From Escherichia coli (GTDB taxonomy: Bacteria; Pseudomonadota; Gammaproteobacteria; Enterobacterales; Enterobacteriaceae): a DNA stretch of 64,000 nt. Under the pieces are notes generated by a model, which made no database searches, was not told the DNA's origin, and was given only the letters and a program-made list of their open reading frames with translations. Both the position numbers and the translations under genes were made by a program. The stretch lies in the NCBI RefSeq assembly GCF_001677475.2, contig NZ_CP015229.1; one strand, written 5' to 3'. Positions 1,212 through 64,000 of this stretch are shown piece by piece. The first letter of the stretch is position 1. Each line of letters opens with the position of its first letter.

Positions 1212-3101
1212 TTACGCATCACCACCGAAACGACGACGACCGGTAGAGTCATCACGACGCGGAGCGCGGCCTTCACGACGTTCGCCGCTAAAACGACGAC
1301 CATCACCACGACCACCTTCACGGCGTTCACCGCTGAAGTTACGACCACCTTCACGACGTTCGCCACTGAAACCACGACCACCGCCACGACGCTCACCGCC
1401 AGTATGCGGCTGTGCATCGCCCAGTAACTGCATGTTCATCGGCTTGTTGAGAATGCGAGTGCGCGTAAAGTGTTGCAGCACTTCACCCGGCATACCTTTC
1501 GGCAGTTCGATGGTGGAGTGAGAAGCAAACAGCTTGATGTTACCGATGTAACGGCTGCTGATGTCGCCTTCGTTAGCAATCGCGCCAACGATATGACGAA
1601 CTTCAACACCATCATCGCGGCCCACTTCAATGCGGTACAGCTGCATATCGCCAACATCACGACGTTCACGACGCGGACGATCTTCACGGTCACCACGCGG
1701 GCCACGGTCGTTACGATCGCGCGGACCACGGTCATCACGGTCACGGAATTCACGTTTCGGACGCATCGGCGCATCTGGCGGAACAATCAGAGTACGTTCA
1801 CCCTGTGCCATTTTCAGCAGTGCGGCGGCCAGAGTTTCGAGATCCAGCTCTTCACCTTCTGCCGTCGGCTGAATTTTGCTCAGCAGTGCACGGTATTGAT
1901 CCAGATCGCTGCTTTCCAGCTGCTGCTGTACTTTAGCGGCGAATTTTTCCAGACGACGTTTGCCCAGCAGTTCTGCGTTCGGCAGTTCAACTTCCGGAAT
2001 GGTCAGCTTCATGGTGCGTTCAATGTTACGCAGCAGACGACGCTCACGGTTCTCAACGAACAGCAGCGCACGGCCAGCACGGCCCGCACGACCAGTACGA
2101 CCGATACGGTGAACGTAAGACTCAGAATCCATCGGGATATCGTAGTTAACTACCAGGCTGATACGCTCAACGTCCAGGCCACGGGCCGCAACGTCGGTCG
2201 CAATCAGGATGTCCAGACGACCATCTTTCAGTCGTTCCAGTGTCTGCTCACGCAGCGCCTGGTTCATGTCACCGTTCAGCGCGGCGCTGTTGTAGCCGTT
2301 ACGCTCAAGGGCTTCTGCCACTTCCAGAGTCGCGTTTTTGGTACGAACGAAGATAATCGCCGCATCAAAATCTTCCGCTTCCAGGAAACGTACCAGTGCT
2401 TCGTTTTTACGCATACCCCAGACAGTCCAGTAGCTCTGGCTGATGTCAGGACGGGTAGTCACGCTGGACTGAATGCGCACTTCCTGCGGCTCTTTCATAA
2501 AGCGGCGGGTAATGCGACGAATCGCTTCCGGCATGGTTGCAGAGAACAGAGCGGTCTGATGACCTTCCGGGATCTGCGCCATAATAGTTTCAACGTCTTC
2601 GATGAAGCCCATGCGCAGCATTTCGTCAGCTTCATCCAGAACCAGACCGCTCAGTTTAGAAAGGTCCAGAGTGCCACGTTTCAGGTGATCCAGCAGACGG
2701 CCCGGCGTACCGACAACGATCTGCGGCCCCTGACGCAGGGCGCGTAATTGCACGTCATAACGCTGGCCGCCGTACAGGGCAACCACGTTTACGCCGCGCA
2801 TGTGTTTAGAGAAATCCGTCATTGCCTCAGCAACCTGTACCGCCAGTTCGCGGGTCGGTGCCAACACCAGAATCTGTGGTGCTTTCAGCTCAGGATCAAG
2901 ATTCTGCAGCAGAGGTAAAGAGAATGCTGCAGTTTTTCCGCTCCCCGTCTGGGCCATACCCAGGACGTCGCGGCCATTCAGCAGATGTGGAATACACTCT
3001 GCCTGAATTGGAGATGGTTTTTCGTAACCCAGATCGTTAAGGGCTTCAAGGATAGGAGCCTTCAGGCCCAGATCTGCAAAAGTGGTTTCGAATTCAGCCA
3101 T
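1212..3101 (-). CDS. deaD: ATP-dependent DEAD-box RNA helicase DeaD/CsdA (629 aa)
   Basis: Translation [33 protein letters not shown]... with DEAD-box motifs ([25 protein letters not shown]). Track ORF (651 aa) over-extends; ATG at 3099..3101 gives the 629-aa product. Confidence 0.95.
1230..1420. repeat. Imperfect ~33-nt tandem repeats encoding the Arg/Gly-rich C-terminal tail of DeaD
   Basis: Three copies of cttcacgRcgttcRccRctgaa...acgaccac on the plus strand, giving the peptide repeats [10 protein letters not shown] in DeaD. Confidence 0.6.
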
Positions 3102-17973: not shown

Positions 17974-19311
17974 TTAAACGGCTTTTACTGCATCGGCGAT
18001 ACGGTGTGCAAATTCAGTTACCTGCGCTTCGTCTTCACCTTCTACCATCACGCGAATTAACGGTTCGGTGCCGGATTTACGCAACAGCACACGTCCACGA
18101 CTACCCAGCGCCGCTTCAACTTCGGCGGTCACAGCTTTGACTGATTCATGCTCCAGTGGATCGCCGCTACCTGCGGTGTAACGCACGTTAACCAGAATCT
18201 GCGGGAACATTTTCATGCCGCTGCAAAGGTCGTGCAGGCTCATATGGTTACGTGCCATCGCCGCCAGCACCTGCAAGCCAGCAACGATGCCGTCACCGGT
18301 AGTGGTTTTATCCAGCAGGATCACATGACCGGAATTCTCTGCACCGATACGCCAGCCTTTCTCCTGCATTTTTTCCAGTACGTAGCGGTCACCCACTTTC
18401 GCGCGCGCAAATGGAATTCCTAACTGTTTCAGCGCCAGTTCAAGCCCCATGTTGCTCATCAATGTACCCACAGCGCCACCACGCAGCTGGCCCTGACGAA
18501 GACCTTCACGCGCGATGATATACATGATCTGATCGCCATCGACTTTATTGCCTTCATGGTCAACCATAATCACGCGATCGCCGTCGCCGTCAAAGGCGAT
18601 ACCGAGATCTGCTTTTTCAGCCAGTACGCGCGCCTGTAACGCACGAACATCAGTTGCGCCCACTTCGGCATTGATATTTACACCGTTCGGCTCACAACCG
18701 ATAGCGATAACGTTAGCCCCCAGTTCGCGCAGCACGTTCGGCGCGATGTGATAAGTCGCACCGTTTGCACAATCCACCACAATCTTCAGTTCACTGAGGC
18801 TAAGTTCGTTCGGGAACGTGGCTTTGCAAAACTCGATATAACGACCCGCGGCATCAACGATACGGCTGGCTTTACCCAGTTCTGCCGAATCAACGCAGCT
18901 GATCTCTTTTTCCATTTCCGCTTCGATGGCCTCTTCTACCGCATCTGGTAGTTTGGTGCCGTCGATAGAGAAGAATTTAATGCCATTATCGTAGAACGGG
19001 TTATGCGATGCAGATATCACAATGCCGGCCTCTGCGCGGAAGGTACGCGTCAGATAAGCCACGGCCGGTGTTGGCATCGGACCAGTGAAGAGTGCGGAAA
19101 GGCCCGCAGCCGCCAGACCCGCTTCCAGTGCTGACTCCAGCATATAGCCAGAAATACGCGTGTCTTTACCAATAATAATCTTACGGGAGCCGTGGCGCGC
19201 CAGCACTTTACCCGCGGCCCAACCCAGCTTAAGCACAAAATCAGGTGTGATCGGCGCATCCCCTACACGACCACGAATCCCATCGGTACCGAAATATTTA
19301 CGATTACTCAT
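17974..19311 (-). CDS. glmM: Phosphoglucosamine mutase GlmM (445 aa)
   Basis: Translation [34 protein letters not shown]... with active-site ASHNP motif. Confidence 0.97.
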
Positions 19312-20210: not shown

Positions 20211-20241
20211 CGGTACAAATACAGTCATCTGATGCGGGAAC

Positions 20242-22176
20242 TTACTTGTCGCCTAACTGCTCTGACATGGTGTTACCCGGGTTCGGCGTACGCGGTTCAT
20301 CAACCGGACGAGGAGCCTTTGGACTACCATTGTCGCCAGAATTGTTAGAAGCGCCTGGTTCTTCCCAGCCCGCTGGCGGACGTACATCGCGACGTGCCAT
20401 CAGGTCATCAATCTGCGGTGCGTCGATAGTCTCATATTTCATGAGAGCATCTTTCATCGCATGCAGAATATCCATATTGTCGGTCAGAAGCTGACGCGCA
20501 CGATTATAGTTACGCTCAATCAGTGCTTTCACTTCCTGGTCGATGATACGTGCAGTTTCATCGGACATATGTTTCGCTTTCGCTACGCTACGGCCGAGGA
20601 ACACTTCACCTTCTTCTTCCGCGTACAGCAGTGGCCCCAATTTCTCAGAGAAGCCCCACTGAGTCACCATGTTACGTGCCAGGTTGGTCGCAACTTTAAT
20701 ATCGTTGGACGCACCGGTAGAAACATGTTCCGGCCCGTAGATGATCTCTTCTGCCAGACGACCACCGTACAGCGTAGAAATCTGGCTTTCCAGTTTCTGA
20801 CGGCTGGCGCTGATTGCGTCGCCCTCAGGCAAGAAGAAAGTCACACCCAGCGCACGACCGCGTGGGATAATCGTCACTTTGTGCACCGGATCGTGTTCCG
20901 GCACCAGGCGACCGATAATTGCGTGACCCGCTTCGTGGTAAGCCGTCGATTCTTTCTGCGCTTCCGTCATCACCATGGAGCGACGTTCCGCACCCATCAT
21001 GATTTTGTCTTTCGCTTTCTCGAACTCAACCATCGACACAACGCGTTTGTTTCCACGAGCAGCGAACAGTGCCGCTTCGTTCACCAGGTTCGCCAGGTCA
21101 GCACCGGAGAAACCAGGAGTACCACGGGCAATGATTGCCGCGTCGATATCGGGTGCCAATGGTACGCGACGCATGTGAACTTTCAGGATCTGCTCACGAC
21201 CGCGAACATCTGGCAAGCCAACCACAACCTGACGGTCGAAACGGCCAGGACGCAGCAGCGCTGGGTCGAGAACGTCCGGACGGTTAGTCGCGGCGATAAC
21301 GATGATACCTTCGTTACCTTCGAAGCCATCCATCTCAACCAGCATCTGGTTCAGAGTCTGTTCACGTTCATCGTGACCACCGCCCAGACCAGCGCCACGC
21401 TGGCGGCCTACGGCGTCGATTTCATCGATAAAGATGATGCACGGTGCCGCTTTCTTCGCCTGTTCGAACATGTCACGAACACGGGATGCACCCACACCGA
21501 CGAACATTTCTACGAAGTCAGAACCGGAGATAGTAAAGAACGGAACTTTCGCTTCGCCTGCAATCGCTTTCGCCAGCAGCGTTTTACCGGTACCCGGAGG
21601 ACCGACCATCAGGACGCCTTTCGGGATCTTACCGCCGAGTTTCTGGAAGCGGCTCGGCTCGCGCAGATACTCAACCAGTTCAGCAACTTCTTCTTTTGCT
21701 TCGTCGCAGCCCGCAACGTCAGCAAAGGTCGTTTTGATCTGATCTTCCGTCAGCATGCGCGCTTTGCTCTTACCAAACGACATGGCACCTTTGCCACCGC
21801 CGCCCTGCATTTGACGCATGAAGAAGATCCAGACACCAATCAGCAACAGCATCGGGAACCAGGAGATGAAGATAGAAGCCAGCAGGCTTGGTTCTTCAGG
21901 CGGTTCACCGACAACCTTGACGTTCTTGGTCAACAGGTTATCCAGTAATTTCGGATCCTGAACCGGAATGTAAGTGGTATAACGGTTACTATCTTTCTTG
22001 GTAACGTTGATTTCACGTCCGTTGATACGCGCTTCACGAACCTGGTCGTTATTGACCTCTTGTAGGAAGGTAGAGTAATCCACCTTACGGCCATTAGACT
22101 CGCTGGGCCCAAAGCTCTGGAATACTGACATCAGCACAACGGCAATGACCAGCCAGAGTATTAGGTTTTTCGCCAT
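20242..22176 (-). CDS. ftsH: ATP-dependent zinc metalloprotease FtsH/HflB (644 aa)
   Basis: Translation [41 protein letters not shown]... with Walker A GPPGTGKT and HEAGH zinc motif. Confidence 0.95.
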
Positions 22177-24099: not shown

Positions 24100-24127
24100 T
24101 TTGATAGTCATTTTACCCTGAAGTTCC
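24100..24127 (-). promoter_or_regulatory. Sigma-E-type promoter (GGAACTT-N16-TCAAA) overlapping a sigma-70 -10 (TAAAAT) upstream of greA
   Basis: Minus strand reads GGAACTT cagggtaaaatgacta TCAAA; a close match to the sigma-E consensus with 16-nt spacing. Confidence 0.55.
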
Positions 24128-24203: not shown

Positions 24204-25637
24204 ATGCGATTTTCCAGATTTATCATCGGATTGGCCAGCTGTATAGCGTTCAGTGTTCAGGCCGCAAATGTTGATGAGTACATTACTCAACTCCCCGCTG
24301 GTGCCAACCTTGCCCTGATGGTGCAAAAAGTCGGCGCGTCGGCCCCCGCTATTGATTACCACAGTCAGCAGATGGCGCTGCCCGCCAGTACGCAGAAAGT
24401 GATTACTGCGCTGGCGGCGTTGATTCAACTCGGCCCCGATTTTCGTTTTACCACGACGCTTGAAACCAAAGGCAATGTGGAAAACGGCGTACTTAAGGGT
24501 GACTTAGTGGCGCGATTTGGTGCCGATCCGACGTTAAAACGTCAGGATATTCGCAATATGGTCGCGACTTTGAAAAAATCTGGCGTCAACCAAATCGATG
24601 GCAATGTGTTTATAGATACCTCCATTTTCGCCAGCCACGATAAAGCCCCCGGCTGGCCATGGAATGACATGACACAATGCTTTAGCGCTCCGCCTGCCGC
24701 CGCCATAGTTGACCGCAACTGTTTCTCCGTCTCGCTCTACAGTGCCCCAAAACCTGGTGATATGGCTTTTATACGCGTGGCATCTTATTACCCCGTTACG
24801 ATGTTCAGCCAGGTACGCACCCTCCCCCGTGGTTCTGCCGAAGCGCAATACTGCGAACTGGATGTGGTGCCAGGCGACCTGAACCGCTTTACGCTGACGG
24901 GATGCCTGCCACAACGTTCTGAGCCGCTCCCGTTGGCTTTTGCCGTGCAGGATGGAGCCAGCTATGCCGGTGCAATTCTGAAAGATGAGTTAAAACAGGC
25001 GGGTATCACCTGGAGCGGAACACTGCTGCGCCAGACTCAGGTTAACGAACCTGGAACGGTAGTTGCCAGTAAACAGTCGGCCCCGCTGCACGATCTGCTT
25101 AAGATTATGCTGAAAAAGTCGGACAACATGATCGCCGATACGGTTTTCCGCATGATAGGCCATGCGCGCTTCAATGTGCCTGGAACATGGCGGGCCGGGT
25201 CGGACGCCGTGCGTCAGATCCTGCGCCAGCAAGCCGGTGTCGATATTGGAAACACCATTATTGCCGATGGTTCAGGGCTTTCGCGGCATAACCTGATTGC
25301 CCCCGCTACCATGATGCAGGTGCTGCAATACATTGCCCAACACGACAATGAACTTAACTTTATCTCCATGCTGCCGCTGGCGGGCTATGACGGCTCTTTG
25401 CAGTACCGTGCAGGTCTGCATCAGGCGGGCGTGGATGGAAAAGTCTCAGCGAAAACCGGTTCGTTGCAGGGGGTATATAACCTGGCGGGATTCATTACCA
25501 CAGCGAGCGGGCAACGAATGGCGTTTGTGCAATATCTTTCTGGCTATGCCGTAGAGCCGGCGGATCAGCGTAATCGCCGTATTCCGTTAGTGCGTTTTGA
25601 AAGCCGTTTGTATAAAGATATTTATCAGAATAATTAG
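24204..25637 (+). CDS. dacB: D-alanyl-D-alanine carboxypeptidase/endopeptidase DacB (PBP4, 477 aa)
   Basis: Translation MRFSRFIIGLASCIAFSVQAANVDEYITQLPAGANLALMVQKVGASAPAIDYHSQQMALPASTQK... (signal peptide, STQK motif). Confidence 0.97.
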   Translation: MRFSRFIIGLASCIAFSVQAANVDEYITQLPAGANLALMVQKVGASAPAIDYHSQQMALPASTQKVITALAALIQLGPDFRFTTTLETKGNVENGVLKGDLVARFGADPTLKRQDIRNMVATLKKSGVNQIDGNVFIDTSIFASHDKAPGWPWNDMTQCFSAPPAAAIVDRNCFSVSLYSAPKPGDMAFIRVASYYPVTMFSQVRTLPRGSAEAQYCELDVVPGDLNRFTLTGCLPQRSEPLPLAFAVQDGASYAGAILKDELKQAGITWSGTLLRQTQVNEPGTVVASKQSAPLHDLLKIMLKKSDNMIADTVFRMIGHARFNVPGTWRAGSDAVRQILRQQAGVDIGNTIIADGSGLSRHNLIAPATMMQVLQYIAQHDNELNFISMLPLAGYDGSLQYRAGLHQAGVDGKVSAKTGSLQGVYNLAGFITTASGQRMAFVQYLSGYAVEPADQRNRRIPLVRFESRLYKDIYQNN

Positions 25638-25647
25638 TCTAAAGAGA

Positions 25648-25672
25648 AACCCCGGCACATGGCCGGGGTTTT
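25648..25672. terminator. Bidirectional terminator between dacB (+) and obgE (-)
   Basis: ccccggcacatggccgggg hairpin with flanking A/T runs. Confidence 0.65.
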
Positions 25673-25677
25673 GCTGA

Positions 25678-26865
<1,188 letters not shown>

Positions 26866-37368: not shown

Positions 37369-37935
37369 ATGAGCAAAGCAGGTGCGTCGCTTGCGACCTG
37401 TTACGGCCCTGTCAGCGCCGACGTTATAGCAAAAGCAGAGAACATTCGTCTGCTGATCCTCGACGTTGATGGCGTACTGTCAGATGGCCTGATTTATATG
37501 GGCAATAACGGCGAAGAGCTGAAAGCGTTCAATGTTCGTGACGGTTATGGCATTCGTTGTGCGCTCACCTCTGATATTGAAGTCGCTATCATTACCGGGC
37601 GAAAGGCTAAACTGGTAGAAGATCGTTGTGCCACATTGGGGATCACTCACTTGTATCAGGGGCAGTCAAACAAACTGATCGCCTTTAGCGATCTGCTGGA
37701 AAAACTGGCGATTGCCCCGGAAAATGTGGCCTATGTCGGCGATGATCTCATCGACTGGCCGGTAATGGAAAAAGTGGGTTTAAGCGTCGCCGTGGCCGAT
37801 GCGCATCCACTGTTGATCCCGCGCGCCGATTACGTGACGCGCATTGCTGGCGGTCGTGGCGCAGTGCGAGAAGTTTGCGACTTATTACTCCTGGCGCAGG
37901 GCAAACTGGATGAAGCCAAAGGGCAATCGATATGA
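37369..37935 (+). CDS. kdsC: KDO 8-phosphate phosphatase KdsC (188 aa)
   Basis: Translation MSKAGASLATCYGPVSADVIAKAENIRLLILDVDGVLSDGLIYMGNNGEELKAFNVRDGYGIRC... (HAD DxDGV motif). Confidence 0.95.
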   Translation: MSKAGASLATCYGPVSADVIAKAENIRLLILDVDGVLSDGLIYMGNNGEELKAFNVRDGYGIRCALTSDIEVAIITGRKAKLVEDRCATLGITHLYQGQSNKLIAFSDLLEKLAIAPENVAYVGDDLIDWPVMEKVGLSVAVADAHPLLIPRADYVTRIAGGRGAVREVCDLLLLAQGKLDEAKGQSI

Positions 37936-38507
37936 GTAAAGCCAGACGTTGGGTTATCATTGTGCTATCACTGGCGGTTCTGGTGATGATCGGCATTAAT
38001 ATGGCCGAAAAAGACGATACCGCCCAGGTGGTCGTCAACAACAATGATCCCACCTATAAAAGCGAGCATACGGACACGCTCGTCTATAACCCAGAAGGGG
38101 CACTAAGCTATCGATTGATTGCTCAACACGTTGAATATTATTCCGATCAGGCCGTTTCGTGGTTTACGCAGCCGGTACTTACCACGTTTGATAAGGATAA
38201 AATCCCGACATGGTCCGTAAAAGCAGATAAAGCCAAGCTGACCAATGACCGGATGCTCTATTTATATGGACACGTTGAAGTCAACGCACTTGTGCCGGAC
38301 TCTCAACTTCGCAGAATCACGACGGATAACGCGCAGATCAATCTGGTGACGCAGGATGTTACCTCTGAAGACCTCGTCACGTTATACGGAACAACATTTA
38401 ACTCCAGCGGTCTGAAAATGCGCGGCAACTTACGCAGCAAGAACGCCGAGCTGATTGAAAAGGTTAGAACATCCTATGAAATTCAAAACAAACAAACTCA
38501 GCCTTAA
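37932..38507 (+). CDS. lptC: LPS export inner-membrane-anchored protein LptC (191 aa)
   Basis: Translation MSKARRWVIIVLSLAVLVMIGINMAEKDDTAQVVVNNNDPTYKSEHTDTLVYNPEGALSYRL...; overlaps kdsC stop by 4 nt. Confidence 0.95.
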   Translation: MSKARRWVIIVLSLAVLVMIGINMAEKDDTAQVVVNNNDPTYKSEHTDTLVYNPEGALSYRLIAQHVEYYSDQAVSWFTQPVLTTFDKDKIPTWSVKADKAKLTNDRMLYLYGHVEVNALVPDSQLRRITTDNAQINLVTQDVTSEDLVTLYGTTFNSSGLKMRGNLRSKNAELIEKVRTSYEIQNKQTQP

Positions 38508-39033
38508 TCTTGTGCTTGCCAGCTCACTTCTGGCCGCCAGCATTCCGGCATTTGCCGTAACCGGAGACACTGATCAGCCGATCCACATTGAATCGGACCA
38601 GCAATCTCTTGATATGCAAGGCAACGTGGTTACCTTTACCGGTAATGTCATCGTCACCCAGGGCACCATCAAAATTAATGCCGACAAAGTGGTCGTTACC
38701 CGTCCGGGCGGCGAACAAGGTAAAGAAGTGATTGACGGCTACGGTAAACCGGCAACGTTCTACCAGATGCAGGACAACGGTAAACCCGTTGAAGGTCACG
38801 CTTCCCAGATGCACTACGAACTGGCAAAAGATTTTGTCGTTCTGACGGGTAATGCTTATCTGCAGCAGGTCGATAGCAACATTAAGGGCGATAAGATCAC
38901 TTACCTGGTGAAAGAGCAGAAAATGCAGGCTTTCAGCGACAAAGGCAAGCGCGTAACCACCGTTCTGGTGCCATCGCAGCTGCAGGACAAAAACAATAAA
39001 GGCCAGACCCCGGCACAGAAGAAGGGTAATTAA
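38476..39033 (+). CDS. lptA: Periplasmic LPS transport protein LptA (185 aa)
   Basis: Translation MKFKTNKLSLNLVLASSLLAASIPAFAVTGDTDQPIHIESDQQSLDMQGNVVTFTGNVIVTQGTIK...; start overlaps the lptC 3' end by 32 nt. Confidence 0.92.
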   Translation: MKFKTNKLSLNLVLASSLLAASIPAFAVTGDTDQPIHIESDQQSLDMQGNVVTFTGNVIVTQGTIKINADKVVVTRPGGEQGKEVIDGYGKPATFYQMQDNGKPVEGHASQMHYELAKDFVVLTGNAYLQQVDSNIKGDKITYLVKEQKMQAFSDKGKRVTTVLVPSQLQDKNNKGQTPAQKKGN

Positions 39034-39039
39034 TTCGTT

Positions 39040-39765
39040 ATGGCAACATTAACTGCAAAGAACCTTGCAAAAGCCTATAAAGGCCGTCGCGTGGTAGAAG
39101 ACGTCAGCCTGACCGTCAACTCCGGGGAAATTGTCGGCCTGCTGGGGCCAAACGGTGCCGGTAAGACCACCACTTTCTATATGGTTGTAGGCATTGTGCC
39201 GCGCGATGCGGGCAACATCATTATTGATGATGACGATATCAGTTTGCTGCCTCTGCATGCACGCGCGCGCCGCGGTATCGGCTATCTGCCACAGGAAGCC
39301 TCCATTTTCCGTCGCCTCAGCGTTTACGATAACCTGATGGCGGTACTGCAAATTCGTGACGACTTGTCTGCTGAACAACGTGAAGACCGCGCGAACGAGC
39401 TGATGGAAGAGTTTCACATTGAGCACCTGCGTGACAGCATGGGGCAGTCACTCTCCGGGGGTGAACGTCGCCGTGTAGAAATTGCCCGCGCACTGGCTGC
39501 GAATCCGAAATTTATTCTGCTCGACGAACCGTTTGCCGGGGTTGACCCGATCTCGGTTATCGACATTAAACGCATCATTGAGCACCTGCGCGACAGCGGC
39601 CTGGGCGTGCTGATCACTGACCACAACGTGCGTGAAACACTGGCGGTTTGTGAACGCGCTTATATCGTCAGTCAGGGGCATTTGATCGCCCACGGCACGC
39701 CTACAGAAATCTTACAAGACGAACACGTTAAGCGTGTATACCTTGGGGAAGACTTCAGACTCTGA
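39040..39765 (+). CDS. lptB: LPS export ABC transporter ATPase LptB (241 aa)
   Basis: Translation [68 protein letters not shown]... Confidence 0.97.
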
Positions 39766-42210: not shown

Positions 42211-43065
42211 ATGGTACTGATGATCGTCAGCGGACGTTCAGGTTCAGGTAAATCTGTCGCCCTGCGTGCGCTGGAAGATATGGGTTTTTACTGCGTGGAT
42301 AACCTTCCCGTAGTGTTGTTACCCGATCTGGCTCGAACTCTGGCCGATCGCGAGATTTCTGCCGCCGTCAGCATTGATGTTCGTAATATGCCGGAGTCAC
42401 CAGAAATATTCGAACAGGCGATGAGTAACCTGCCTGACGCTTTCTCACCGCAACTCCTGTTCCTGGATGCCGACCGTAATACCTTAATTCGTCGTTACAG
42501 TGACACGCGCCGACTGCATCCGCTTTCCAGCAAAAACCTGTCGCTGGAAAGTGCTATCGACAAAGAAAGCGATTTGCTGGAGCCTCTGCGTTCGCGAGCG
42601 GATCTGATTGTCGATACCTCAGAAATGTCCGTTCACGAGCTGGCTGAAATGCTGCGTACCCGTCTGCTGGGTAAACGTGAACGCGAACTGACAATGGTCT
42701 TTGAGTCTTTCGGCTTCAAACACGGTATCCCTATCGATGCAGATTACGTCTTTGACGTGCGCTTCTTGCCGAACCCGCACTGGGATCCGAAACTGCGTCC
42801 AATGACAGGTCTTGATAAGCCCGTCGCCGCGTTCCTCGACCGCCACACAGAAGTACACAATTTTATCTACCAGACGCGAAGCTATCTTGAGCTATGGTTA
42901 CCTATGCTGGAAACCAACAACCGTAGCTACCTGACGGTTGCCATTGGTTGTACCGGCGGGAAGCACCGTTCGGTGTATATTGCAGAGCAACTGGCAGACT
43001 ACTTCCGCTCGCGCGGTAAAAACGTCCAGTCACGCCATCGTACGCTGGAAAAACGTAAACCATGA
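42211..43065 (+). CDS. rapZ: RNase adaptor protein RapZ/YhbJ (284 aa)
   Basis: Translation [44 protein letters not shown]... (Walker A GRSGSGKS). Confidence 0.95.
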
Positions 43066-43546: not shown

Positions 43547-44179
43547 ATGATTCGCTTATCTGAACAAAGTCCCCTGGGCACCGGAAGACATCGGAAATGT
43601 TATGCGCATCCGGAAGATGCCCAACGCTGTATCAAGATTGTCTACCATCGTGGCGATGGTGGCGATAAAGAGATCCGCCGTGAGTTAAAGTATTACGCGC
43701 ATCTTGGTCGCCGGTTAAAAGACTGGAGTGGAATACCGCGCTATCACGGTACCGTTGAGACGGATTGCGGAACCGGTTATGTCTACGATGTGATTGCAGA
43801 TTTTGACGGCAAGCCCTCCATTACGCTGACCGAATTTGCTGAACAATGCCGTTACGAAGAAGACATTGCACAACTGCGCCAGTTACTGAAACAGCTGAAG
43901 CGTTATTTGCAGGATAACCGTATCGTGACGATGTCGCTGAAGCCGCAGAATATCCTCTGTCACCGCATCAGTGAGTCAGAGGTTATCCCCGTCGTCTGCG
44001 ACAACATTGGTGAAAGCACATTGATTCCACTGGCGACCTGGTCGAAGTGGTGTTGTCTGCGTAAGCAAGAGCGGTTATGGAAACGATTTATCGCCCAACC
44101 GGCGCTGGCTATTGCCCTGCAGAAAGATCTGCAACCTCGTGAAAGCAAAACGCTGGCCCTCACTTCGCGCGAAGCTTAA
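43547..44179 (+). CDS. yrbL: PhoP-regulon protein YrbL (210 aa)
   Basis: Translation [60 protein letters not shown]...; the track ORF start (43490) lies inside the PhoP box, so the downstream ATG is preferred. Confidence 0.88.
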
Positions 44180-44904
44180 TCCAGCTGGTGTTGTTGCATA
44201 AACGACTCACCGCCTAACTGATACATCTGCCGTAAAATCCACGCCTGACGGCTACGCACGTAGCCCGATGGCGCGGAGACTTTGAAACGAAGTGGATTAG
44301 GTAATACAGCTGCCAGTAATGCAGCTTCCGACCGGGTAAGTTTGCTCGCGGGTTTGTGGAAATAACGTTGTGCCGCAGCTTCGACGCCAAACACACCGTC
44401 GCCAAATTCGGCGATATTCAGGTAAACCGTCAGGATACGCTTTTTGCTCCAGACCGTTTCTATCCCCAGCGTTAATCCGGCTTCTAGCCCTTTTCGAACC
44501 CAGCTACGCCCATCCCATAAAAAGAGATTTTTGGCCGTCTGCTGAGAAATCGTTGATGCACCGCGAATACGGTTTTCATTGCGCTCGTTGTGCGCCAGGG
44601 CTTTCTCAATGGAAGCGACATCAAAGCCCCAGTGCTCAGGAAATTTCTGATCTTCTGCGGCAATCACCGCCAGTCCCATCCACGGCGAGATTTGATCCAT
44701 ACTGACCCAGTCAGAATGTGCCACGTAACGAAAATTGCCATGCAGCCAGGCGCTGACCTGTCGCTCGACCATTACCGCTGAGAAAGGAACAGGCGCAACG
44801 CTAAACAACGCAATGCCCCCGCCCCAGAAAACGGCGAGGACAACCATTAACCGCAGAAGAAAACGGCGAACGAAACTAAACACCGTTAAGCGGCTTTTAC
44901 TCAT
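44176..44904 (-). CDS. mtgA: Monofunctional peptidoglycan glycosyltransferase MtgA (242 aa)
   Basis: Translation [73 protein letters not shown]... Confidence 0.95.
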
Positions 44905-52800: not shown

Positions 52801-54280
52801 GATGATCTCCGTGAAGCTGGTTTCCGAACCGGGCGTAGGCACCATCGCGACTGGCGTGGCAAAAGCTTATGCCGATTTAATCACCATCGCAGGCTATGAC
52901 GGCGGCACCGGCGCAAGTCCGCTTTCATCGGTGAAATACGCAGGCTGTCCGTGGGAACTCGGCCTGGTGGAAACCCAACAGGCGCTGGTTGCCAACGGTT
53001 TACGTCATAAAATTCGTTTGCAGGTTGATGGCGGCCTGAAAACGGGCGTTGATATCATCAAAGCGGCGATTCTCGGCGCAGAAAGCTTCGGCTTCGGCAC
53101 TGGCCCAATGGTCGCGCTCGGTTGTAAATATCTGCGAATTTGCCACCTGAACAACTGCGCCACGGGTGTAGCAACTCAGGATGACAAACTGCGTAAGAAT
53201 CACTATCACGGCCTGCCGTTCAAAGTGACTAATTACTTTGAGTTTATCGCCCGTGAAACCCGCGAACTGATGGCACAGCTGGGCGTAACGCGTCTGGTGG
53301 ATCTGATTGGTCGCACCGACCTGCTGAAAGAGCTGGACGGTTTCACCGCCAAACAGCAGAAACTGGCGCTGTCGAAGCTGCTGGAAACCGCCGAACCGCA
53401 TGCAGGTAAGGCGCTCTACTGTACCGAAAACAATCCGCCGTTTGATAACGGCCTGCTGAACGCGCAGTTGCTGCAACAGGCGAAACCGTTTGTCGATGAA
53501 CGCCAGAGCAAAACCTTCTGGTTCGATATCCGCAACACCGACCGTTCTGTCGGCGCGTCGCTTTCAGGCTATATCGCCCAGACGCACGGCGATCAGGGGC
53601 TGGCAGCCGATCCTATCAAAGCGTACTTCAACGGCACCGCAGGCCAGAGTTTCGGTGTGTGGAACGCGGGCGGCGTGGAACTGTACCTGACCGGGGATGC
53701 CAACGACTATGTCGGTAAAGGCATGGCGGGCGGCTTAATCGCCATTCGTCCTCCGGTTGGTTCCGCCTTCCGCAGCCATGAAGCAAGTATTATCGGCAAC
53801 ACCTGCCTGTATGGCGCGACCGGTGGTCGTCTGTATGCCGCAGGCCGCGCGGGTGAACGTTTCGGCGTGCGTAACTCCGGTGCTATCACCGTGGTAGAAG
53901 GCATTGGCGACAACGGCTGTGAATATATGACGGGTGGTATCGTCTGTATTCTGGGTAAAACCGGCGTTAACTTCGGCGCGGGCATGACCGGCGGCTTCGC
54001 TTACGTTCTCGATGAAAGCGGCGATTTCCGCAAACGCGTTAACCCGGAACTGGTCGAGGTCTTAAGCGTTGACGATCTGGCGATCCATGAAGAGCATCTG
54101 CGTGGTCTTATCACCGAGCATGTTCAGCATACTGGCTCTCAGCGCGGTGAAGAGATTCTGGCGAACTGGTCAACCTTCGCCACTAAATTTGCGCTGGTTA
54201 AACCGAAGTCCAGTGATGTAAAAGCACTGCTGGGTCACCGTAGTCGTAGCGCAGCAGAGTTGCGCGTGCAGGCGCAGTAA
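49820..54280 (+). CDS. gltB: Glutamate synthase (NADPH) large subunit GltB (1486 aa)
   Basis: Translation [44 protein letters not shown]... through the FMN and glutamate-synthase C-terminal domains. Alternative in-frame upstream starts exist (49712, 49727); the propeptide is removed to expose Cys in CGFGL. Confidence 0.93.
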   Translation: [1486 protein letters not shown]

Positions 54281-55711
<1,431 letters not shown>

Positions 55712-55894
55712 GCTCTGTCCCAGCGCCGCCTCCTCAGAAAAGAGTCGGCGCTGAAATTCTCCTTTCTTTCTGGAAAGCGCCTCGCATAATCTGAAGAAAA
55801 CCAATGTAATACGCTCATCTGGATTGTTACCGGTAGATGCCCGGCGTATAGCTGATTCCATTATTCAACGCAGCGCCATATAAAGGGACAGATA

Positions 55895-57022
55895 ATGGAA
55901 TCGCTCTCAGAGAGAACCTCAACAGGCTACCAGCAAATCCACGACGGTATTATTCATCTGGTCGATAGCGCACGGACGGAAACGGTACGTAGCGTTAACG
56001 CGCTGATGACCGCGACATACTGGGAAATTGGCCGACGAATTGTCGAATTTGAACAAGGTGGCGAGGCCAGGGCTGCGTATGGTGCGCAGCTAATCAAGCG
56101 ACTATCAAAGGATTTAAGTCTAAGGTATAAGCGTGGGTTCTCTGCAAAAAACTTACGCCAAATGAGGCTTTTTTACCTCTTTTTTCAACATGTTGAAATT
56201 CGCCAGACAGTGTCTGGCGAATTAACACCATTGGGAATTCCGCAGACACCATCTGCAGAATTCCCATCGGCAAAGATTTGGCAGACGCTGTCTGCCAAAT
56301 CTTTCCCCCTGCCCTGGTCCACCTACGTCCGTTTACTTTCCGTTAAAAACGCTGACGCCCGCAGCTTTTATGAAAAAGAGACGCTCCGCTGTGGCTAGTC
56401 TGTTCGCCAGCTAGAACGGCAAATTGCGACCCAATTTTATGAGCGAACACTACTGTCACATGACAAATCAGCCATGCTGCAACAACATGCTCCTGCCGAG
56501 ACGCATATTCTTCCGCAACAGGCGATACGCGATCCTTTTGTGCTTGAATTTCTGGAGTTGAAAGATGAATACTCAGAATCCGATTTTGAGGAGGCGCTGA
56601 TCAACCACCTGATGGATTTCATGCTGGAACTTGGGGATGATTTTGCCTTTGTTGGTCGACAGCGAAGGTTACGCATTGATGACAACTGGTTTCGTGTCGA
56701 TCTGCTGTTTTTCCACCGCCGTTTACGCTGCCTGCTAATCGTCGATCTAAAAGTGGGCAAATTCAGCTATAGCGATGCCGGACAGATGAATATGTATCTC
56801 AACTACGCCAAAGAGCACTGGACGCTACCGGATGAAAATCCGCCCATCGGTCTGGTTCTCTGTGCAGAGAAAGGAGTCGGAGAAGCGCATTATGCACTGG
56901 CTGGTTTGCCTAACACCGTTCTGGCGAGTGAATATAAGATGCAACTACCTGATGAAAAACGACTCGCGGATGAACTCGTTCGAACACAGGCGGTGTTAGA
57001 GGAAGGCTATAGACGCCGTTAA
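55895..57022 (+). pseudogene. yhcG: yhcG (DUF1016, PD-(D/E)xK nuclease-fold family) interrupted by an in-frame TAG at 56396..56398
   Basis: Track fragments 55895..56398 and 56474..57022 share one frame; read-through gives a 375-codon ORF. C-terminal part carries a D...DxK-like motif (VDLLFF...IVDLKVGK). Confidence 0.8.
56201..56304. repeat. Three adjacent palindromes with a CAGAC..GTCTG core inside yhcG (a fourth lies at 57038..57062 after the stop)
   Basis: cgCCAGACAgTGTCTGGcg (56201..56219); gggaattccGCAGACaccatCTGCAGaattccc (56233..56265, one mismatch); aaagatttgGCAGACgctGTCTGCcaaatcttt (56272..56304, perfect 15-bp arms). Confidence 0.7.
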
Positions 57023-57081
57023 TTTCAGCGGTTTCGAATTCTCCAGACACTGTCTGGAGAATCTTTAAAACGAACTAAATT

Positions 57082-58414
<1,333 letters not shown>

Positions 58415-58418
<4 letters not shown>

Positions 58419-59104
58419 AGCACCGCCTTTTTCATCGCTGTGTTGTACCACTGACAAATGTGTTCAAGACGCGTAATGGCAGAACCGACCGTCACCGCCC
58501 ACGCGCCGTGGCGCATCGCATCTGCCGCCTGAGCAGGCGTGTTGTAACGCCCTTCGGCAATCACCCGACATCCGGCGTCGCTCAACGTTTTCACCAGCGC
58601 CAGATCCGGCTCTTCTGGCGTTTCAGGCGTGGTATAGCCAGAAAGCGTAGTGCCAATAATTTCGGCTCCCAGCTTTTGGCATGCCAGGCCGTCTTCCGGC
58701 GTTGAGCAGTCGGTCATCGCCAGTAAACCGTGATGGTGAATACGTGCCAGCAACGTTTCAACAGGCACCGGACGCGGGCGGTCGGTGCCGTCAATGGCGA
58801 TAATGTCCGCGCCCGCCTGCGCCAGCGCATCAACATCTTCAATATAGGCCGTGATGCGTACCGGAGAATCCTCCAGATCGCGTTTCACAATTCCAATAAT
58901 CGGCACGCTCACCACCGCACGCGTGGCTTGCAGATTTGCCACACCTTCAATACGAATGGCGACCGCGCCCGCCTGCTCTGCCGCTAATGCCATGGCAGCG
59001 ACGATTTCGGGTTTATCGAGCGGGCTGTCCGGAACCGGCTGGCAGGAGACAATCAGGCCACCGTTAGCAGCGATTTTTTGATCCAGTTGTGCAAGTAACG
59101 ACAT
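58415..59104 (-). CDS. nanE: N-acetylmannosamine-6-phosphate 2-epimerase NanE (229 aa)
   Basis: Translation [76 protein letters not shown]... Confidence 0.93.
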
Positions 59105-59151
59105 ACATCTTCCCTTAGCGAAAGGCCCGGTACAGAGACCGGGCAACAGGA

Positions 59152-60642
59152 TTAACTTTTGGTTTTGACTAAATCGTTTTTGGCGCTGCCAAACGGCACG
59201 GCACCGCTGAATGGTTTACCGTCGATAGCGTCATGAGTACGCAACGCTTCCGGGCGCAACCAACGCTGAACACGAGAAGGCATATCCAGACCAATCAGCA
59301 GGATCACCACAAATGTCAGACTGAACGAGAGCGATGCCAGCGCCGTCCCCAGATCCAGACGTTGAGCGATCAACGCGCCGATGATTGGGGCCAGTGCGCC
59401 ACCCAATGCGCCAACGTTATAGGTAAAGCCCAGGCCCGCTGCACGCTGGTCGGTATCGAAATAACCGCCAATCAGTTTCGGTAAGATCCCGGCGATCCCT
59501 TGTCCAAGCATTTGCTGGAAGAACAGTAACAGACCGAGCACCCAGACGTTTGCGCCGCCAATCGCAAATACCGGAATAATCAGCAGCTGCGAGGCCAGCA
59601 GGCTACAAACGTACGCTTTGCGGGTTCCCAGCCAGTCACCGAGGAAGCCACCTACGCAGCATCCCACCGCCGCGCCAAAGCCACTAAAGAACAGCACATT
59701 GGCGACAGTATGCGGGTTATAAGCCAGATCGGTTTTCAGATACGTTGGCAGCAGCGCCTGAATCGGCCATGAGTAGAGGAAAGCAAACAACACGACCACC
59801 ATCAGCATTACGCCCGTTGGCCAGCGTTTGCCCGTACTTTGCACCATAAAGCTGATAAAGATTGCGGCGCATAACAGCCCAAGAACAGCGACGATCGCGG
59901 CATTTTGCAGGTTACCGGCGAAGCAAAACCACAGCGCAGTAGCCGCCGCCAGTGTCATTACGATATTGGCAATGCGATGTTCACCCCGGTAGAGAATATC
60001 TACCATCGTGCGTACTGGTGCTTTACCAGCATGTTTCTCTTTCCAGTCTTCCGCTTCCGGGATGTTTTTACGCAGCCAGAGAGCAAAGATGATTGGCAAA
60101 ATGCCGATAAAGAACAGCGCACGCCAGCCCCAGACCGGAACCACCAGGCTATAGACCTGAGCGGCAACGACGGCCCCCACAGAGAAGCCGGAAATCAGAA
60201 AACCACTGGCTTTATTACGCAGATGTTTTGGCCAGCTTTCAATGACATAGGTGGCGCTGGAACCGTATTCACCCGCCATCCCCATGCCGATGACCAGACG
60301 AGCGATAAACATGGTGATGTAGCCTGGCGCAAAGCCGCAGGCCAGCGTCCCGGCCGAGAAGAGAACGATGCTGGTGACCATTGCCAGACGACGCCCGTAG
60401 CGGTCACCCATAGCGCCGAGCATCAGGCCGCCGAACCAGCGAGAGATAAAGGCTGCGGAGATCAGACTTGCCGCCTGCACCGTCGTCAGCCCGAATTCAC
60501 CTTGTACTTCGGTGAGTACCAGGGCGATTAAAACGAAATCAAAACCGTCAAGCAGATATCCCAACCAGGCAGCGGAAAATGCCCGCCATTGTGCACGATT
60601 GAGATGGCGATACCACGGGATATTCTGGGTTGTAGTACTCAT
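59152..60642 (-). CDS. nanT: Sialic acid transporter NanT (MFS, 496 aa)
   Basis: Translation [72 protein letters not shown]... Confidence 0.93.
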
Positions 60643-60750
60643 TGTGAGTCTCCCGCGGTGGGCGATGCCCACACGCTTTGGTATGAAAATTGTAGGGTAC
60701 AGATGCGTTTATTTCCCCTCACCCGGTAGGGGCGAGCGAGGGGAAACAAC

Positions 60751-61644
60751 TCACCCGCGCTGTTGCATCAACTGCTGGGCCAGCGCCTTCAGTTCTGGCA
60801 GATATTTTTCATCTACCGGTCCAAACGGTTTGCGGCACAGCGGCACAGAAACGACATCCATATAATGGAGGACAGTTTTCAGGCCGCGAAATACGCCCGT
60901 TTTGATCAGTAAATCAATGACTTTATTGCACTCAGTTTGCAGTTTCTGCGCGGTCTGGATATCGCCTTCTTTCAGCGCCTTAACAATGCCCTGATAACGC
61001 CAGCCCATGATGTTGTAGGTACTACCGATACCACCATCAGCGCCCGCCAGAAGACCAGAGGCGAAGATTTCGTCGTAACCGTTATAGAGCACCAGATCAG
61101 GATGTTCACGACGGATCTGTTCCATCTGATAGAGATCGCCAGAAGTCTGTTTCAGCGCACCGACGCCAGGCAACGTAACAAGTGTGTTGATCTGATCCAG
61201 GGTCAGTTTTACCCCACTCAGGGCTGGAATGTTGTACACCACCATCGGCAACCCATCCGCTGAATCAATAATTGCCCGATAGTGATCGCAGTGTTCTTCA
61301 AAGCTGAAAGGATAGTAGAACGGCGTAACGGCAGAGACGGCATCGAAGCCATAACGTTTAGCCGATGCCGCAAGTTGTTGGCTTTCAGCAGTGCTGACGC
61401 AACCTACGTGAGCGATGAGTTTAATCTTGCCTTTCGCCTCTTCGGCGACGATTTCCAGTACCTGTTCACGCTCGGAAAGGCTTTGTACAAAGGCTTCGCC
61501 GGTAGAACCACCCACGTATAAACCGTCGATGCCCTGCTGAATATTGAACTGAACCAGGCGACGCAGACTCGCTTTATCCAGTGCTTGTTGTTGATCAAAA
61601 GGAGTCAGGAGTGCGGCCATTACGCCACGTAAATTCGTTGCCAT
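60751..61644 (-). CDS. nanA: N-acetylneuraminate lyase NanA (297 aa)
   Basis: Translation [81 protein letters not shown]... Confidence 0.97.
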
Positions 61645-61679
61645 AAATACCTCTGAAGTGATGCTTGTCTGATAAACGA

Positions 61680-61702
61680 TATACCTTTATACCTGTTATA
61701 CC
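61680..61702 (-). promoter_or_regulatory. NanR operator: three tandem GGTATA repeats in the nanA promoter
   Basis: Minus strand reads GGTATAacaGGTATAaaGGTATA about 40 nt upstream of the nanA ATG. Confidence 0.6.
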
Positions 61703-61765
61703 AGATCAATTAAGCAACACCCCATACAGAAAGCTTATAATGCGATCTGCTTCACTAAAGTGGCA

Positions 61766-62557
61766 TTATTTCTTTTTGTTGGTGCTCTGACCGAAGGCAT
61801 GCCAGGTAGCAGAGACGCTGTTGAGATGCGATTGCAACGCGCGATCGGCTTCATCGGGATCGTGGCGGCGGATCGCGTCAACGATCGCAATATGCTGTTG
61901 ATAGCTAACGTTGTTATGCTCGTGCAGAGCCTGATCAGCCACGGTTGGACGTGCGGCGATTAGCCAGTCGAGCAGGGCAACGTGGATCGCCATGAAGATT
62001 GGGTTACCTGGGATCTCCGCCAGCACGCGGTGGAAATCAACGTCTGAGCGAATGAATGCCGCGTTGTTATCCAGCGACTGACTGTTGATTTCCAGTGCTT
62101 TTGCCAGCAAATCGATTTGCTCATCGGTGGCGTGTTCAGCCGCATAGCGCACCAGGCTGGATTCAAAGAACAGACGTAATTGTTCGAAATGGGCAATCCC
62201 ACCTGGATGAGAAAGGAAATCTTTCGCCATGCCGGAAAGCTCGCCGATGATGGTGTCCGCAGAAGGTCGAGAGACACGAGCGCGTTCGCCGTTGTTTATT
62301 TGCACCAGACCTTTGCGTTTTAACGCTGCCAGCGCTTCACGCACAGAAGGACGCCCGACGTTAAAGAACGCCATCAGTTCGCGTTCAGACGGTAATTGTT
62401 CACCTTCGCCAAATTCACGACGGCGGATCATCTGTTCCAGCTCTTCTTCCACCATTTCGGAGAGTTTTTTACGCGCCAGCGGGCGGCTGCGCAAGTTGCG
62501 ACCAATTGCAGGTGAAGAATCTTCGGTTTGCGAATCAAATGCGTTCATAAGGCCCAT
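61766..62557 (-). CDS. nanR: GntR/FadR-family transcriptional repressor NanR (263 aa)
   Basis: Translation [79 protein letters not shown]... Confidence 0.95.
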
Positions 62558-62936
62558 TCTGTAAGGTCAGTGTGATTAACATCATCAGTGACATCCTATC
62601 ACAGGATTGAAAGTAGGGGAAAATGGCAGGGTTTTCTCTTTGTGCCTCATCATTACCATAATTAATGGAATAATTAACTATTGCGGAAAATTAATGTAAC
62701 GCAGATAAAAACATCCCGATTGAATTATTTATAAGACTATTCACGAGCATTATGAATATTATGAATGTGTTCTTACAAAATAATCATAAGCGCATATTTT
62801 TTAATGAAAAATCACCTCACCCACAATTAAAAACACGACATCCGCACCATAAATAGACTTGCAAAAAATATAACATCATTGTTTTCAATCTGCCGTTTAT
62901 GGGATTGACCGTTTTCTTTTGACACGGAGTTCAACA

Positions 62937-64000
62937 ATGTTCGGCATAATTATATCTGTCATCGTATTAATTACGATGGGCTATTTGATCCTGAAAAACT
63001 ACAAACCTCAGGTGGTGCTGGCTGCCGCAGGTATCTTCCTGATGATGTGCGGTGTCTGGTTAGGGTTCGGTGGTGTACTCGATCCCGCCAAAAGCAGCGG
63101 CTACTTGATCGTCGATATTTATAATGAAATCCTGCGTATGCTGTCCAACCGCATTGCCGGATTGGGGCTGTCGATTATGGCGGTGGGCGGTTATGCCCGC
63201 TACATGGAGCGCACAGGAGCCAGTCGCGCGATGGTGAGCTTGTTAAGCCGCCCGTTAAAACTCATTCGCTCGCCGTATATTATTCTGTCGGCAACTTATG
63301 TCATCGGCCAAATCATGGCGCAGTTTATTACCAGCGCCTCCGGTCTGGGTATGTTGCTGATGGTCACCTTATTTCCGACGCTGGTGAGTCTGGGAGTAAG
63401 TCGCCTCTCTGCGGTGGCGGTTATCGCAACCACGATGTCCATTGAGTGGGGGATTCTGGAAACGAACTCCATTTTTGCTGCCCAGGTAGCGGGAATGAAA
63501 ATTGCCACATACTTCTTCCACTACCAGCTTCCGGTCGCCTCTTGCGTCATTATCTCGGTGGCGATCTCCCACTTTTTCGTGCAACGCGCTTTTGACAAAA
63601 AAGATAAAAATATCAATCACGAACTGGCAGAGCAAAAAGCTCTCGATAATGTCCCGCCGCTCTATTACGCCATTTTACCTGTGATGCCATTAATCCTGAT
63701 GCTCGGCTCGCTGTTCCTCGCCCACGTCGGGTTGATGCAGTCAGAACTGCATCTGGTGGTGGTGATGTTACTGAGTTTGACGGTGACGATGTTTGTTGAG
63801 TTCTTCCGCAAGCATAACTTGCGCGAAACAATGGACGATGTGCAGGCGTTTTTTGACGGCATGGGTACGCAGTTTGCCAACGTGGTAACGCTGGTGGTCG
63901 CGGGTGAAATATTTGCGAAAGGCTTAACGACGATTGGCACTGTTGATGCGGTTATCAGGGGTGCGGAGCATTCTGGTCTGGGCGGTATTGGCGTGATGAT
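62937..64000 (+). CDS. dcuD: Putative C4-dicarboxylate transporter DcuD, N-terminal part (3' end cut by window edge)
   Basis: ATG at 62937 then [46 protein letters not shown]...; polytopic membrane protein; not in ORF track because truncated. Confidence 0.88.

Follow-up and report, generated by a model that had tools for sequence, protein, structure and literature searches.

The closest described systems for overlapping genes are termination-reinitiation pairs, in which stop and start codons overlap by 1 nt (TAATG), 4 nt (ATGA) or 8 nt (PMC12548453; PMC10666635). According to a 2025 review, three spacings, -1, -4 and -8 nt, are enriched and associated with translational coupling, and in the reporter work of Tian and Salis discussed there coupling fell as the overlap grew and was absent at -25 nt (PMC12548453). 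Reinitiation is described as steeply distance-dependent (PMC10666635). A further described arrangement is a ribosome-binding site that lies within the 3′ end of the preceding gene, where synonymous change is suppressed. For the lpt genes themselves, the lptC/lptA overlap is already described in print, together with two minor promoters within lptC upstream of lptA, the sigma-E-dependent lptAp1 and lptAp2; the same work shows that lptAB is still expressed, from the sigma-E promoter within lptC, once lptC has been turned off, and that the lptC-depleted strain is rescued by lptC in trans (PMC4986956). The 32-nt lptC/lptA overlap analysed here is an already known, textbook-known feature.

The window, i.e., the whole 64,000-nt stretch of E. 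coli DNA that was analysed, comes from an Escherichia chromosome and is collinear with K-12 between mtr and nanR. The junction lies in the well-known Escherichia operon yrbG-kdsD-kdsC-lptC-lptA-lptB, with the following features:

37369..37935, + strand: kdsC, with its TGA stop overlapping the lptC start codon (ATGA, 37932-37935, 4 nt)
37932..38507, + strand: lptC coding sequence, 191 aa, TAA at 38505-38507 (open reading frame list, K-12 mapping and Pfam)
38476..39033, + strand: lptA coding sequence, 185 aa, ATG at 38476-38478 (open reading frame list, K-12 mapping and Pfam PF03968)
38476..38507, + strand: lptC/lptA dual-coding overlap, 32 nt
38476..38556, + strand: LptA signal-peptide coding region, 27 aa, MKFKTNKLSLNLVLASSLLAASIPAFA
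39040..39765, + strand: lptB, which begins 6 nt past the lptA stop

The first-pass annotation had placed the lptA start 32 nt inside lptC, which is borne out with the exact coordinates 38476-38507 and has the same layout in K-12. There, lptC (yrbK, b3199; 3342836-3343411) and lptA (yhbN, b3200; 3343380-3343937) share the starts, the stops and the 32-nt overlap with the window at DNA identities of 99.8% and 99.5%, respectively; the junction itself is identical, and strain differences lie elsewhere (the gltF-yhcADEF block and the probable yhcG pseudogene). The frame of lptA is one base downstream of that of lptC, and its ATG falls within the Tyr182-Glu183 codon pair of lptC (tATGaa), past which lptC continues for eight further codons to its TAA. 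The overlap reads Y182-E-I-Q-N-K-Q-T-Q-P-stop in the lptC frame and M-K-F-K-T-N-K-L-S-L-N in the lptA frame. On the LptC side, it covers the final two residues of the Pfam domain (PF06835, E=7e-55, residues 9-183 of 191), Tyr182 and Glu183, plus an eight-residue tail; on the LptA side, it takes in codons 1-10 and the first two bases of codon 11, at the beginning of the signal peptide. The translated LptA N-terminus has an n/h/c layout ending in AFA, residues 27-185 align with PDB 2r19 (“Protein yhbN”), and all solved LptA chains start at residue 27-29; these chain starts, together with the usual A-x-A rule at signal-peptide cleavage sites, place the inferred cleavage site. The overlap joins two permissive segments, the LptC C-terminal tail past the Pfam domain and the charged n-region with which the LptA signal peptide begins.

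To compare this junction with others in the window, K-12 and O55:H7 annotated genes were mapped onto it, each of which keeps its start and stop codons there. All eight other overlaps listed in the first-pass annotation are present (1, 8, 1, 4, 4, 4, 4 and 4 nt). One is the kdsC/lptC junction above; the others are given here together with two that were absent from that list:

8018, - strand: rbfA stop and truB start, 1 nt (TAATG)
19304..19311, - strand: folP stop and glmM start, 8 nt
32352, - strand: mlaC stop and mlaB start, 1 nt (TAATG)
43062..43065, + strand: rapZ stop and npr start, 4 nt (ATGA)
44901..44904, - strand: elbB stop and mtgA start, 4 nt (ATGA)
57543..57546, - strand: nanK stop and nanQ (yhcH) start, 4 nt (ATGA)
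58415..58418, - strand: nanE stop and nanK start, 4 nt (ATGA)
3094-3101, co-directional: yrbN/deaD, 8 nt, absent from the earlier list
44176-44179, convergent, stop-on-stop: yrbL/mtgA, 4 nt, absent from the earlier list

The description of such overlaps as routine for these operons is right, and so is their use for fixing start codons, as all implied starts coincide with the curated K-12/RefSeq starts. The longest open reading frame often opens upstream of the curated start, e.g., at TTG 38455 for lptA and TTG 58457 for nanK; longest-frame calls would misplace the starts of lptA, nanK, nanE, folP, rbfA and elbB, which the overlaps pin.

The suggestion that these overlaps reflect translational coupling stands in part. 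The eight 1-, 4- and 8-nt junctions match the termination-reinitiation pairs exactly in spacing, so coupling is reasonable there, and they can reasonably be taken as the ordinary kind associated with termination-reinitiation. In contrast, lptC/lptA at -32 nt lies outside the enriched spacings of -1, -4 and -8 nt that define such a pair, and the suggestion is weak for it. The predicted accessibility of start regions points in the same direction. Start regions of genes downstream of 1-, 4- and 8-nt overlaps are predicted to be markedly more structured, with a median predicted opening energy of 12.9 versus 8.3 kcal/mol (9 overlap-pair genes versus 48 other window genes; Mann-Whitney p=0.005), and these closed start regions fit a dependence on upstream translation. 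Structured start regions are predicted in this group at truB, mlaB, deaD, mtgA, nanK and nanQ, whereas lptA represents the opposite extreme: its region from -18 to +12 is 50% A, and an opening energy predicted at 4.0 kcal/mol makes it the third most accessible of 58 window genes.

Our favoured reading, which we consider probable, is that this is the known lpt-operon overlap with lptA translated mainly by independent (de novo) initiation. It is inferred from the absence of coupling already at -25 nt in the reporter work, the expression of lptAB with lptC switched off, the open start region and the scarcity of synonymous change in lptC just ahead of it. Most likely, lptA starts translation independently rather than by hand-over from lptC, and strict dependence on upstream lptC translation is argued against by the published lptAB genetics. 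Ribosomes would load within the final ~45 nt of lptC, on an A-rich stretch that lacks structure and has a weak AAGG 12 nt ahead of the ATG. This region would serve both the long operon mRNA and the shorter mRNAs from the minor promoters lptAp1 (sigma-E) and lptAp2, and little would come from hand-over of ribosomes that terminate at the lptC stop, which lies 30 nt beyond the lptA ATG. The junction folds no better than shuffled sequence (minimum free energy z = -1.35 and -0.98), a predicted UUGAA/UUCAA pairing in it is broken by a common ATT>ATC change, and an Rfam search of the junction gave no match; a structured RNA at the junction was rejected on these results. Neither lptA nor lptC appears in the INRI-seq and riboproteogenomics supplements.

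Variation within lptC marks where such an initiation region may lie:

38430..38468, + strand: lptC block of low synonymous variation, -46 to -8 from the lptA ATG, 39 nt (normalised synonymous entropy)
38460..38463, + strand: AAGG, weak Shine-Dalgarno-like sequence 12 nt upstream of the lptA ATG

In the Enterobacteriaceae alignment, the median normalised synonymous entropy is 0.065 over the 13 codons of the block versus 0.78 over 90 upstream lptC codons (Mann-Whitney p=4e-6), and the codons TTA and AGA, both rare in E. coli, are kept inside it. The two lptC codons between the block and the lptA ATG vary freely, variation is again low inside the overlap (median 0.05), and lptA-frame synonymous variation resumes right after the lptC stop. 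Variable columns in the overlap are lptC wobble positions, i.e., second codon positions of lptA, so that these variants change the signal-peptide n-region (Phe to Ser, Lys to Arg, Thr to Ile) and leave the LptC tail the same. The predicted duplex of AAGG with the 16S 3′ end is only -3.4 kcal/mol (rank 47 of 58 genes), yet AAGG-N12-ATG is invariant across the Enterobacteriaceae compared and is retained in Pantoea sp. Aalb. In one reduced, AT-rich symbiont, lptC ends 21 nt short of the lptA ATG and the block is thus non-coding, yet AAAAGG-N12-ATG is still kept. This pattern of variation suggests that block 38430-38468 is the lptA translation initiation region embedded in lptC. It resembles the ribosome-binding sites embedded in the 3′ ends of upstream genes, where synonymous change is suppressed as it is in lptC from -46 to -8; unlike a bare Shine-Dalgarno site, the constrained stretch is longer (~39 nt) and holds only the weak AAGG 12 nt from the ATG.

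The overlap is widely conserved. A scan of species-representative genomes yielded 80 Enterobacteriaceae loci with LptA 80-100% identical, and the lptA ATG is kept in all of them. Overlap length was counted in 80 sequences (79 loci plus the window), every one of which has an lptC/lptA overlap, of 32 nt in 75, 20 nt in three and 17 nt in two, the 20- and 17-nt forms stemming from earlier lptC stops. In E. coli, 5303 of 5425 complete genomes carry exactly the same 81-nt junction. Together, the kept ATG, the kept overlap and this junction identity argue that the overlap is no chance feature. A protein word-index search for LptA returned only Enterobacteriaceae among the best 120 matches; more distant relatives (38-53% identity) were taken from the representative search and from contig look-ups. 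In these distant Gammaproteobacteria, the overlap spans 8-32 nt, and every length is 2 mod 3, indicating that the relative frame of lptC and lptA is conserved. It measures 20 nt in Grimontia (Vibrionaceae), 29 nt as called or 14 nt with a 175-aa start in Aeromonas, 8 nt in Candidatus Providencia siddallii, 26 nt in Pantoea sp. Aalb, and 14, 20, 20 and 32 nt in other gammaproteobacteria; in one further gammaproteobacterium, it is 44 nt as called but would be 17 nt if lptA began at the Met of the homologous TATGAA context. Many lineages have the lptA ATG within an LptC Tyr/Asn-Glu codon pair (tATGaa or aATGaa). The lptC/lptA overlap is very old: it occurs in Enterobacterales, in Vibrionaceae and in Aeromonas, each time in a constant relative frame. 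On contig LN890288.1, from the reduced genome of the symbiont Serratia symbiotica, the genes run lptC-lptB-lptA and ~190 nt separate lptB from lptA, i.e., the junction has been broken by rearrangement.

The strongest alternative, which we regard as unlikely, is translational coupling, in which ribosomes that finish lptC at 38505-38507 would remain on the mRNA, move ~30 nt back and reinitiate at the lptA ATG, tying LptA output to that of LptC. LptC and LptA do bind each other as partners in one machine, the Lpt bridge, and retention of the overlap in 80 Enterobacteriaceae sequences and in distant Gammaproteobacteria counts in favour of coupling. The weak Shine-Dalgarno match of lptA counts against independent initiation, as it might also be expected of a gene that depends on upstream translation. 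Coupling is enriched, moreover, among interacting-partner gene pairs, and overlapping pairs among complex subunits (PMC10666635). However, the overlap exceeds the length at which coupling was lost in the reporter constructs and has none of the enriched spacings (PMC12548453), and lptAB from promoters inside lptC supports growth with lptC untranscribed and supplied in trans (PMC4986956). The predicted open start of lptA also leaves no structure for upstream ribosomes to melt. Independent initiation thus remains the best reading.

A second alternative concerns the promoters inside lptC, for which the primary paper on the lptAp1 and lptAp2 positions is reportedly Martorana 2011. With GGAACTT-N16-TCTGA/TCAAA as the sigma-E consensus, the best + strand site in the kdsC 3′/lptC region is the following:

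38388..38415, + strand: sigma-E consensus match GGAACAA-N16-TCTGA inside lptC, score 16 of 18

Its sequence makes it likely that this site is the published lptAp1, in which case transcription would be predicted to start near 38423, ~50 nt before the lptA ATG. Outside Escherichia, the motif varies at its wobble bases, a pattern that would suit an ancillary promoter specific to this lineage. Over the whole window, the loose sigma-E pattern occurs 5 times versus 5.2 expected, i.e., with no enrichment. Among the other matches, GGAACTT-N16-TCAAA lies upstream of greA (24100-24127, - strand), and GGAACTT-N17-TCTGA lies antisense at the ftsH 3′ end (20237-20265, + strand), where it may mean nothing because the whole-window count is at chance. 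In the accessible part of Rhodius 2006, GreA expression is described as enhanced by sigma-E, and the only mention touching the lpt genes is of a validated sigma-E promoter far upstream of yhbG (lptB).

It is improbable, though compatible with independent initiation, that block 38430-38468 is a DNA-level element such as the promoter lptAp2, possibly with a very short or absent leader. Two promoters are reported in lptC and only one good sigma-E match was found, and a weak sigma-E-like AGAACGC-N17-TTAGA does lie inside the block (38440-38468), where the variable bases -5 and -2 would fall between a -10 element and the transcription start; however, most non-Escherichia sequences have A in place of the G of its AGAAC, and a search of 37900-39100 gave no sigma-70 consensus promoter. 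The persistence of AAGG-N12-ATG in reduced AT-rich symbiont genomes also speaks against a DNA element, and the block fits the footprint of an initiating ribosome, whose contacts span roughly -35 to +19. A more speculative and, in our view, rather improbable idea is that the LptA:LptC ratio is set by a conserved cis-regulatory module spanning roughly -46 to +32 relative to the lptA ATG. By one route, ribosomes translating lptC would occlude de novo lptA initiation on the operon mRNA, from which the short sigma-E transcripts would escape; by another, an RNA or protein partner would bind there, tying LptA supply to envelope stress.

The last alternative places the lptA start elsewhere, which would make the 32 nt an annotation artefact:

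38452..38457, + strand: lptA-frame TGA stop (38452-38454) and, directly after it, TTG 38455, the sole alternative in-frame start

Initiation at this TTG (53-nt overlap, 192-aa precursor) or at another codon is very improbable: TTG 38455 is the first possible start past the in-frame TGA and is invariant in all 80 sequences, and public LptA entries of 191-197 aa exist, but its invariance is accounted for by the lptC codons ATT GAA and the surrounding conserved block, no Shine-Dalgarno-like sequence precedes it, the lptA-frame codons from TTG to ATG undergo radical replacements (His to Pro/Arg/Leu, Pro to His/Leu/Arg) since their variable bases coincide with lptC wobble positions, in seven of nine distant lineages an in-frame stop lies 2-11 codons before the ATG and there is no alternative start, and downstream no Met occurs before mature LptA (solved chains from residue 27-29). 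TTG 38455 was rejected on the lack of a Shine-Dalgarno sequence, the radical codon changes and the upstream stops in distant lineages. Conservation of the ATG in 80 of 80 loci and these distant upstream stops indirectly support the annotated ATG 38476 as the lptA initiation codon. Public LptA entries of 191, 192 and 197 aa stand beside the 185-aa form; the 191-192-aa lengths fit the upstream TTG and would be a start mis-call caused by the overlap.

Outside the junction, the window shows some strain-specific features. Of 5426 complete E. coli genomes, 5425 contain a match to the 3-kb lpt region, with identities reaching 99.6%, and lptC and lptA are more than 99% identical to K-12, whereas mtr (1-1058) and gltD (54293-55711) are 94.6% and 95.2% identical, respectively; for the nan region (54000-64000), the best match among the 5426 genomes is 97.8%. 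This patchy divergence suggests, from sequence identity, that the strain belongs to a divergent lineage (Escherichia or Shigella-like) or that some segments have recombined. The K-12 gltF-yhcA-yhcD-yhcE-yhcF block is missing between gltD and yhcG, as in O55:H7/O157:H7-type genomes, and yhcG (55895-57022) carries an in-frame TAG at 56396 and is probably a pseudogene. A coordinate-offset shift at the dacB-obgE spacer (25637-25678) shows that K-12 is ~145 bp longer there, probably owing to a repeat element present only in K-12.

The lptC/lptA overlap has little importance beyond annotation. What the present analysis adds is its phylogenetic depth, its constant relative frame, and a synonymous-constraint block marking the putative embedded lptA start region. 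LptA is essential and a current antibiotic target; in lptC deletion, tagging or codon optimisation, ~38430-38507 should be kept intact, as LptA expression would otherwise likely change. More generally, the junction carries the caution that an overlap need not mean coupling, since the 32 nt of lptC/lptA exceed the 25 nt at which coupling was lost in reporter experiments and are accompanied by internal promoters and an open, conserved start.
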